This document shows positions 1 to 3,000 of a DNA stretch of 64,000 bases, in pieces. Where the stretch lies: the NCBI RefSeq assembly GCF_054482595.1, contig NZ_CM137008.1; one strand, 5' to 3'. Each line of letters starts with the position of its first letter. The first letter of the stretch is position 1. The position numbers are program-made.

Positions 1-3000
1 ACTTCAATCTTGCCGCCGCTGGCTTTACGCCCAAACAGGCGCGCCGGGATCACCCGGGTATTATTAAAAACCAGAAGATCGCCGGGGTTGAGCTTATCGA
101 GTAAATCGGTGAAAGTACCGTGCGTCAGCGCGCCCGTCGGCCCGTCCAGCGACAGTAAACGACAGCTACTGCGTTCAGGCATCGGATAGTGGGCAATCAG
201 GGATTCGGGCAATTCAAAGGAGAAATCGGTAACGCGCATGACACTGACTCAGACTAAAATAAGAGGCGGGTAGTCTAGTGCCGGGGCGCTCTCCCTGCAA
301 CCTTTACCCCCCTTTGGATAGAATATAATCGATGAATTTTTTAGCTCACCTGCATTTAGCCCATCTCGCGGAAAGCTCGCTTTCCGGCAATTTGCTGGCT
401 GATTTCGTACGCGGAAATCCTGAAGAAAGTTTTCCGCCCGACGTCGTGGCTGGCATTCATATGCATCGACGTATCGACGTATTGACTGACAATCTGCCGG
501 AAGTCCGCGAAGCACGGGAGTGGTTTCGTAGTGAAACTCGCCGCGTTGCGCCTATTACGCTGGATGTCATGTGGGATCACTTTCTTTCCCGTCACTGGTC
601 GCAGCTGTCGCCGGACTTTCCGCTACAGGAATTTGTTTGTTATGCCCGCGAGCAAGTGATGACAATTTTGCCGGACTCACCGCCACGCTTTATCAACCTG
701 AACAACTACTTATGGTCAGAGCAGTGGCTGGTGCGCTATCGCGATATGGATTTCATCCAGAACGTGTTAAACGGCATGGCAAGCCGTCGCCCACGTCTGG
801 ATGCCCTGCGTGACTCCTGGTACGATTTAGACGCCCATTATGCCGCCCTCGAAACCCGCTTCTGGCAGTTTTATCCACGGATGATGGCGCAGGCGTCACG
901 CAAGGCGCTCTGAAACTTCAAACTCCGGCGTCACTATTTTTTAGCATTCGCATCCAGCGGGGCGGCATAACAACGGTAAGAAAAACATTCGCTGGAATGA
1001 TTGGCGATATCTTTAAAGTTGCTTTCAGCAACCCCCTCGAACATGAGTACCGTTCTGGACAACTTTCCGTTTTCATTTATATGTGGAAAATCAAATTGGC
1101 TACTGAATCGCCATACATCTGTCTTTTCTGGCTCGCTCTTCACAGAGATATGTCGATGGAGGACCCCTCCTGTAAACGTGCGCCAGAACAATTGTTGATC
1201 AAAATCTTGTAATTTCTCAGAGTTGGATCCTATTTGCTCTATTAAATCTGCATACCGCGGACTGCCATCACGAGAAATATTATGCAACTCCTGACAAAAA
1301 GCATCAAACAAACAATCCATGTGAGCACTTTGGAAAAAGGGTCTTAATATGATTTGTTGCTCATCGCTGTAATCCAGGAGCAGGGCATGGATTACTTCCT
1401 CTGGTAGTTCAAATCCCTGATCAGTGGTATAATTTTTTTCTCGCATGCATTTTACATGAATAATATCAGCTAGATGCCTCCGGGTTTTTAATTCTAAACT
1501 AACACCATTGATATCAACCGGAGTGTTAGCCAGATCTCTCTGCGCGTCTTTCAAATTTAACTCATAGAGTTTGGGCAGTTTATCTGCAGATACGTATCCG
1601 GATGAAGAAATCTGGTGTGTACGCAGGGGCGGCTGTTCACAAAGCATCGAGGTTATATCGTCTTTAAACTCTTTTACATTAAACTTCTCGGCATTAACCT
1701 TCCCTGTTATAAACCCCGCTTTGGCAATTTTCTTCTCTAATTGTTTTGTACGTTTAGAATAATAAGCGTTGTTATCATAAAACTTTTCAAGAAGGGCCCA
1801 CTCCTCAAGTTGCCTTATGTGATTTTTCAACTGTTGATGATCTATTTTATATTCATGTGTACTAGAATCATTTTGGTTGCAGGAGTTACAGATTTTTAAG
1901 CATAATTTTCCATCAGATTTATTATCTATGGTATCAGTGAAAATATAGGACACTTCAATATTCTGCCCGTTCTTATCAGTCATCTCATATGACCATTGCC
2001 CCGTTCGTTTCGCATTCTTAATGAGTTCGATGGACTCTGCAGGACAACCATGAAGAATGGGCAGAATTTTATCAGGATACTTAATGAGTAAAATTATTAT
2101 ATTTACAACTTTTGAAAAGAAATTTTTGCTATTTTTTATTTCATCGATTTTTTCCGCTGAAATGTTTACTAAGTTTTCATTTCCGCAAATGAAAAGCGAT
2201 TTGCCATGGGTGCTTTTTTTAAATTGTTCTTCTGTTTTAGAAAAGACATCCTCCTTAAAAGGTGGCAACTTAGAACCAGTAATAAACGGTTTTAATAAAT
2301 TCGAATTTGAAATTGTCATATCTTTGCTCCACTACAGGGTTATCCTGGAGCATGTTGTACATAACATCATGGGCAAACAATACCAAAAATCGCTCATATC
2401 GATCGGGACAAATATTTAACAAATTCAGCCCTGACATTGAGCAGCTTTTTTGCGCTGCGTAGTGTCAGGGCTGGTGACTAACGACGTAACAAATAAAACA
2501 GATGCTTTAGTTCATCCACACCGTAGCCGAAATGGCAGGCAAAGCCAGAATCCCGTCTGTCAGTTGCCCATGGCCTTCTTTGCGTTGCCATTGCACGACA
2601 TTAAGAAACGGTGACGCGGGGAGCACCACTTCACAGGCCTCGCCACGGTTGATTGCCACCAGTACACGCTGCTGATTTAGCACGCGGACAAATACCACCA
2701 CGTTATCTTCCGCATACAGTACCTGACAGCCGCCACGACGCAGCGCCTGACTTTTCTTACGCAGCACAATCATTCGCTGGTACAGCGCGAATAACGCCGT
2801 ATCCTGCTTTTCCACCTGCCAGGGGAACGGTTTACGGCAAAACGGATCGTTTTTACCATCCAGTCCCACTTCATCACCGTAATAAATGCACGGTACACCA
2901 GGCCAGGTGAACAGCCAGACCACCGCCAGGGGCAGGCGCGCAACCTCCCGACCGAGCAGCGTTTTAAATCGCGCAGTATCGTGGCTGTCGAGCTGATTAA

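Follow-up and report, generated by a model that had tools for sequence, protein, structure and literature searches.

What is the perfect inverted repeat that lies between the malZ stop codon and an inserted gene of 461 codons in this E. coli sequence? An earlier note on this DNA had placed it at 2426-2474 with a spacer of 27 bp, judged such a loop long for a simple terminator, and proposed a dimeric regulator-binding site or a remnant of the insertion event instead. We analyzed the repeat in a window of 64 kb, which is the whole stretch of DNA under study. The repeat forms the base of an ordinary terminator-like hairpin in a strain-variable islet. The locus is laid out as follows.

332-913, plus strand: acpH (ACP phosphodiesterase), the left border of the islet, convergent with malZ.
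914-2506, unstranded: the AT-rich, strain-variable islet of about 1.59 kb, which reaches from the acpH stop codon to that of malZ.
934-2319, minus strand: the 461-aa orphan ORF, allelic to ECs_0454 of O157 Sakai and preceded by a GGAG Shine-Dalgarno sequence at 2327-2330.
2474-2506, minus strand: the 33-nt spacer from the malZ stop codon to the hairpin, inside the islet (read from the sequence).
2507-4324, minus strand: malZ (maltodextrin glucosidase, 605 aa), whose transcript would carry the hairpin at its 3' end.

The GC content of the islet is 29-44%, against about 55% in its flanks. On the minus strand, the order is the malZ stop codon, 33 nt, the hairpin, 106 nt that include the Shine-Dalgarno sequence, and the ATG of the orphan ORF, and the repeat is thus located between malZ and the inserted gene, as had been described. 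The 11-bp inverted repeat is also as perfect as claimed, the segment at 2426-2436 having its exact reverse complement at 2463-2473. The spacer measures 26 bp (2437-2462) rather than 27, and the repeat ends one position earlier than first given, at 2473. Nor is the loop too long for a simple terminator, since the spacer pairs with itself through an inner stem (GCAGC at 2441-2445 with GCTGC at 2454-2458) and leaves an apical loop of 8 nt. In a repeat search, the arms reach 20 nt at 85% complementarity, separated by 8 nt, and both strands are predicted to fold as a single hairpin of 48 nt, which consists of an 11-bp outer stem, a 4x4 internal loop, a 5-bp inner stem, and the 8-nt apical loop. G and C account for 7/11 positions of the outer arms and 4/5 of the inner stem. 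The parts of the hairpin are given below.

2410-2425, minus strand: the U-rich tail AAUUUGUUAAAUAUUU, which follows the hairpin immediately in the malZ-sense RNA (read from the sequence).
2426-2473, minus strand: the complete 48-nt stem-loop, malZ-sense RNA CAGCCCUGACA-CUAC-GCAGC-GCAAAAAA-GCUGC-UCAA-UGUCAGGGCUG.
2426-2436, unstranded: the outer arm CAGCCCTGACA (plus strand), forming the 3' arm in malZ-sense RNA; invariant in 17/17 haplotypes.
2441-2458, unstranded: the inner 5-bp stem that closes the apical loop at 2446-2453, an A/T run (repeat search and folding).
2463-2473, unstranded: the outer arm TGTCAGGGCTG (plus strand), which is the 5' arm of the malZ-sense RNA hairpin; one uncompensated mismatch in each of two rare haplotypes.

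The bare repeat is not significant by itself, as dinucleotide shuffles predict about 0.9 perfect 11-bp inverted repeats with a spacer of at most 40 per 64-kb window and four loci were observed. The full hairpin is far beyond chance. Its energy is -31.4 kcal/mol against -12.4 +/- 2.7 kcal/mol for shuffled sequences (z = -7.1); none of 200 shuffles was as good, and the minimum free energy structure makes up 69% of the ensemble. The RNA of the opposite strand is the more stable of the two (-35.2 vs -29.9 kcal/mol for the malZ-sense RNA), because two positions of the internal loop become G.U pairs. No Rfam 15 family reached its gathering score in the hairpin region, the only match being a sub-threshold miRNA model with 23 bits against a gathering score of 90.

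We then asked how the hairpin is distributed among strains. The full islet was found in 1126 of 5426 complete E. coli genomes, among them O157:H7, in which the orphan gene is ECs_0454; the remaining genomes matched only the flanks of the 2-kb query. A 61-nt query covering the hairpin, run in sensitive mode, gave the same count of 1126 genomes, with exactly one place in each and none on plasmids; hairpin and islet occur together, and no further copies of the repeat were found elsewhere in the genome. The only matches to the islet or hairpin labeled as plasmids were two mislabeled chromosomes of 4.9 Mb. Just 4 bp separate the stop codons of acpH and malZ in the islet-free genomes of CFT073 and the K-12-like strain 9A, and the hairpin is therefore absent from the empty junction. 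This comparison, proposed earlier as the decisive one, supports the view that the repeat came with the insert: it travels with the islet and is not an ancestral malZ terminator common to all E. coli. Carriers share 96-100% identity in the leader of the orphan gene, a level similar to that of the adjacent core genes, which indicates that the presence/absence polymorphism of the islet is old within E. coli.

At the empty junction (positions 512-521 in both L001 and L003), acpH and malZ are convergent, and no terminator-like site for either gene was seen in the 1-kb stretch scanned. The transcripts of acpH and malZ must therefore enter each other's coding region in such strains. In O157:H7 and roughly one in five E. 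coli genomes, the malZ-acpH islet supplies a terminator-type hairpin of its own, and the 3' end of malZ thus differs between islet-bearing and islet-free strains.

We lean towards reading the hairpin as an intrinsic-terminator-type 3'-end hairpin for malZ, which would insulate the orphan gene from malZ transcripts; termination is a prediction. malZ is a maltose-induced gene of the mal regulon. Transcription of malZ on the minus strand would pass the malZ stop codon, yield the hairpin 33 nt further on, and then reach the U-rich stretch. The hairpin could thereby serve as an intrinsic (Rho-independent) terminator and as a 3'-end protective element, ending or stabilizing the malZ mRNA, and would limit read-through into the orphan gene, the ATG of which lies 106 nt beyond. 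The inverted repeat noticed at first is the base of one 48-nt GC-rich stem-loop inside a 1.6-kb islet that was putatively acquired horizontally.

Several features are consistent with this reading. The position and orientation of the hairpin, shortly after the malZ stop codon on the malZ-sense strand, fit a terminator; the stem-loop is stable and GC-rich, as in intrinsic terminators; and the apical loop of 8 nt in the window falls within the short loops typical of such sites (about 3-8 nt), alleles having 6-9 nt. The tail is a weak U-tract, with 5 U in its first 8 nt, interrupted and beginning with AA; on the other strand, the sequence that follows the hairpin is GUGACUAACGACG. A d'Aubenton-Carafa-type discriminant, computed with ViennaRNA energies, gave -9.5, +2.7, and +23 for the malZ-sense strand at tail offsets 0, 1, and 2, and was negative at all offsets for the opposite strand. 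A simple terminator scan did not call the hairpin site, though the tail agrees with the scan's rule of 5 T in 8; a stem interrupted by an internal loop is probably outside what the scan can recognize, which would explain the miss. Compared with the Rho-independent terminators of E. coli, the malZ hairpin shares a GC-rich stem, a short apical loop, single-copy occurrence, and a location on the sense strand a few tens of nucleotides past a stop codon, with a U-rich stretch after it. It differs in its long stem of 16 pairs, broken by the 4x4 internal loop, and in its U-tract, which is interrupted and comes after AA, and termination at the malZ hairpin is predicted from sequence.

Some observations speak against a terminator. 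The weak, interrupted U-tract, the negative discriminant at offset 0, and the failure of the simple scan to call the site all count here. The 20-nt arms are longer than those of typical E. coli terminators, the opposite-strand RNA folds better, compensatory changes were not seen, and the stems are not significantly more conserved than the flanks. In addition, K-12-type strains have no terminator-like site after malZ, and malZ would therefore have no strict need for one.

The natural variation of the hairpin bears on whether its pairing matters. The sample consisted of 43 leader copies, representing 17 haplotypes, from complete genomes, assemblies, and a metagenome scan, the last of which was anchored on the downstream flank and thus did not select for the hairpin itself. 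The counts of polymorphic columns were as follows.

Stems: 2/32.
Unpaired hairpin positions: 6/16, plus one insertion.
Flanks: 23/178.

The stems are less polymorphic than the unpaired positions of the hairpin (Fisher p = 0.012) and do not differ significantly from the flanks (p = 0.38). Both stem substitutions are uncompensated singletons, and no compensatory base change or covariation was found among the 43 sequences, the divergence of which is too low for a covariation test. The apical loop has 6, 7, 8, or 9 nt depending on the allele, which places the 11-bp arms 24-27 bp apart. All seven natural hairpin haplotypes gave -26 to -30 kcal/mol on folding, loop length having barely any effect on the energy. 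The pattern suits a hairpin with pairing that matters and loops that do not.

The same data have to be weighed against the possibility that the hairpin is a functionless passenger, for instance the terminator of a gene that lay upstream in the donor or a neutral palindrome, retained only because the islet is young in mutational terms. We regard this as the foremost of the alternatives and nevertheless as improbable. It would account for stems that vary no differently from the flanks, for the lack of covariation, for the two natural alleles that carry uncompensated stem mismatches, and for the absence of an equivalent element in K-12-type strains. It would not predict that the unpaired positions vary significantly more than the stems or that every haplotype retains at least -26 kcal/mol. 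Moreover, the divergence of the leader is close to that of the core flanks, so that the islet has resided in E. coli for enough time to reveal decay.

It also seems rather unlikely that the hairpin acts in the 5'-UTR of the orphan mRNA, as a 5' stabilizer or attenuator of the orphan gene transcribed from a promoter in the 3' end of malZ or in the 33-nt spacer. Such a role would agree with the location of the hairpin 106 nt upstream of the orphan ATG on the same strand, and with the 187-nt leader, which is 100% identical between the 461-aa allele and the 481-aa (O157-type) allele while the ORFs share 81% amino-acid identity. A consensus scan found no sigma-70-like promoter on the minus strand in 2320-2700, and this result bears on the proposal in two ways: the lack of a promoter-like site between the hairpin and the ORF speaks for it, and the lack of one upstream of the hairpin speaks against it. 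The remaining leader is without significant structure (z = -0.98), and its divergence among carriers resembles that of the flanking core genes, which indicates that it is not specially conserved.

Given that no promoter-like site was found near the orphan ORF, its insulation from malZ transcription, or its coupling to it, is a real issue for the gene. Apart from the hairpin, no recognizable signal lies between the maltose-induced malZ and this hypervariable orphan gene, which has no recognizable promoter of its own, and the hairpin would therefore decide whether the orphan is co-expressed with the mal regulon. A leaky or conditional attenuator that couples this lineage-restricted, promoter-less gene to the maltose regulon is conceivable, and we consider it doubtful. 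Were it true, the orphan protein would be made only upon malZ induction and read-through.

The orphan gene itself offers few clues. Sequence searches with the 461-aa protein against Pfam, PADLOC, NCBIfam, and the PDB found no relative and no recognizable domain, and the same domain searches recognized no DNA-binding domain, transposase, or integrase in the protein or the islet. The protein is confined to Escherichia, with 18 matches in 1.8 billion representatives; all 18 are alleles or fragments, except for one weak match to an unrelated protein of 947 aa. A search for related loci in genome contigs likewise found none. An AlphaFold2 model built from an alignment of 8 sequences had a pLDDT of 41.9 and is unusable. 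A literature search on ECs0454/Z0502 and on malZ/acpH in O157 returned nothing relevant and no transcript-end data. Alleles of 461, 481, 485, and 489 aa were observed. Their N- and C-terminal parts are near-identical, and comparison of the ORF at 934-2319 (minus strand) with the allele at L010 2501-3946 revealed a hypervariable central block at about aa 250-375, including a 20-aa indel. The central variability looks like allelic cassette exchange or diversifying selection.

A protein-binding site in the DNA, at which the two 11-bp arms would be half-sites for a regulator of the orphan gene (a dimer, as suggested earlier, or a tetramer), now appears very improbable. In its favor, the arms are perfect, one of them does not vary among the haplotypes, and a gene lies downstream of the site. 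However, the 26-bp spacing is polymorphic, and over a range of 24-27 bp the half-sites would turn relative to each other by as much as about 100 degrees; the variable length of the apical loop therefore disfavors a dimer operator of fixed spacing, the half-sites being out of phase. The spacer is itself palindromic, as a hairpin predicts, and no promoter-like site overlaps or adjoins the repeat. The arm motif does not occur again in the window, no genome matches the 61-nt hairpin segment twice, and the domain searches detected no DNA-binding domain in the neighboring protein.

Palindromic repressor operators resemble the malZ repeat in being perfect inverted repeats upstream of a gene. They differ from it in their short, fixed spacing and in their location on a promoter beside a regulator gene, whereas the repeat after malZ has a spacing of 26 bp that varies, no promoter-like site, and no regulator gene nearby. 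The window contains a possible example of such an operator, a perfect inverted repeat with 21-bp arms at 52173-52225 (ATATACTATAGGGGGGTATGC, 11-nt spacer), which ends 25 nt upstream of an ORF. We take this ORF to be FrmR, in which case the palindrome would be the frmRAB operator/promoter.

The other earlier suggestion, a remnant of the insertion event, is equally hard to credit, whether as the end of a mobile element, a recombination site like attC, or a repeat of the REP/MITE type: the hairpin did come with the islet and lies near one of its ends, 33 nt from the malZ stop codon, but this places it inside the islet and off the boundary, no direct or inverted terminal repeat and no partner for the hairpin was found at the islet ends (880-2540 searched), the hairpin is single-copy in each of the 1126 genomes and absent, like the islet, from true plasmids as well as from the phages and viral contigs searched, and no transposase or integrase was recognizable in the islet. 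An integron attC site was considered and rejected, as the stem bases are CAGCCC/GGGCTG and not RYYYAAC/GTTRRRY cores, a nearby GTTAAAT has no complementary ATTTAAC partner, and the hairpin is 5' of the ORF, whereas attC would be expected 3' of a cassette ORF. A short match, ATAAAAC/TGAAAC, is present at both islet borders and could represent microhomology or a target duplication; it is too short and inexact to interpret.

As a terminator-type hairpin with a possible protective role, the malZ element may also be compared with the REP/BIME-type stem-loops that protect 3' ends. Like them, it is stable and intergenic, would sit at the 3' end of an mRNA, and could block 3' exonucleases. Unlike the dispersed REP/BIME elements, it is single-copy, and its sequence is unrelated to REP. 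REP/BIME-derived naRNA4 (RF02564) arrays, unrelated to the malZ hairpin, are present in the window at 54663-54841 (minus strand) and 56870-57250 (plus strand), with 8 matches above the gathering score.

A loose pattern of 9+9-bp arms, AGCCCTGAC...GTCAGGGCT, was also searched for in genome contigs and retrieved at least 120 unrelated hairpins from distant phyla. Among the matches listed, none was enterobacterial and none had the same inner sequence. Multi-copy repeat families were seen among the listed matches (L032-L041, L059-L064, and L079-L098) in a Verrucomicrobia MAG, the Alphaproteobacterium AAP38, and an Azospirillum MAG. Each copy follows the pattern GCGAGCCCTGAC-N-GTCAGGGCTCGG; these families bear no relation to the E. 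coli hairpin and probably represent REP-like elements of the respective genomes.

The window contains two more perfect inverted repeats. One, at 5882-5909, has 11-bp arms and a 6-nt loop and lies between the minus-strand ORFs 4480-5856 and 5929-7248; the other, at 34552-34581, has 13-bp arms and a 4-nt loop. Both look like ordinary terminator hairpins.
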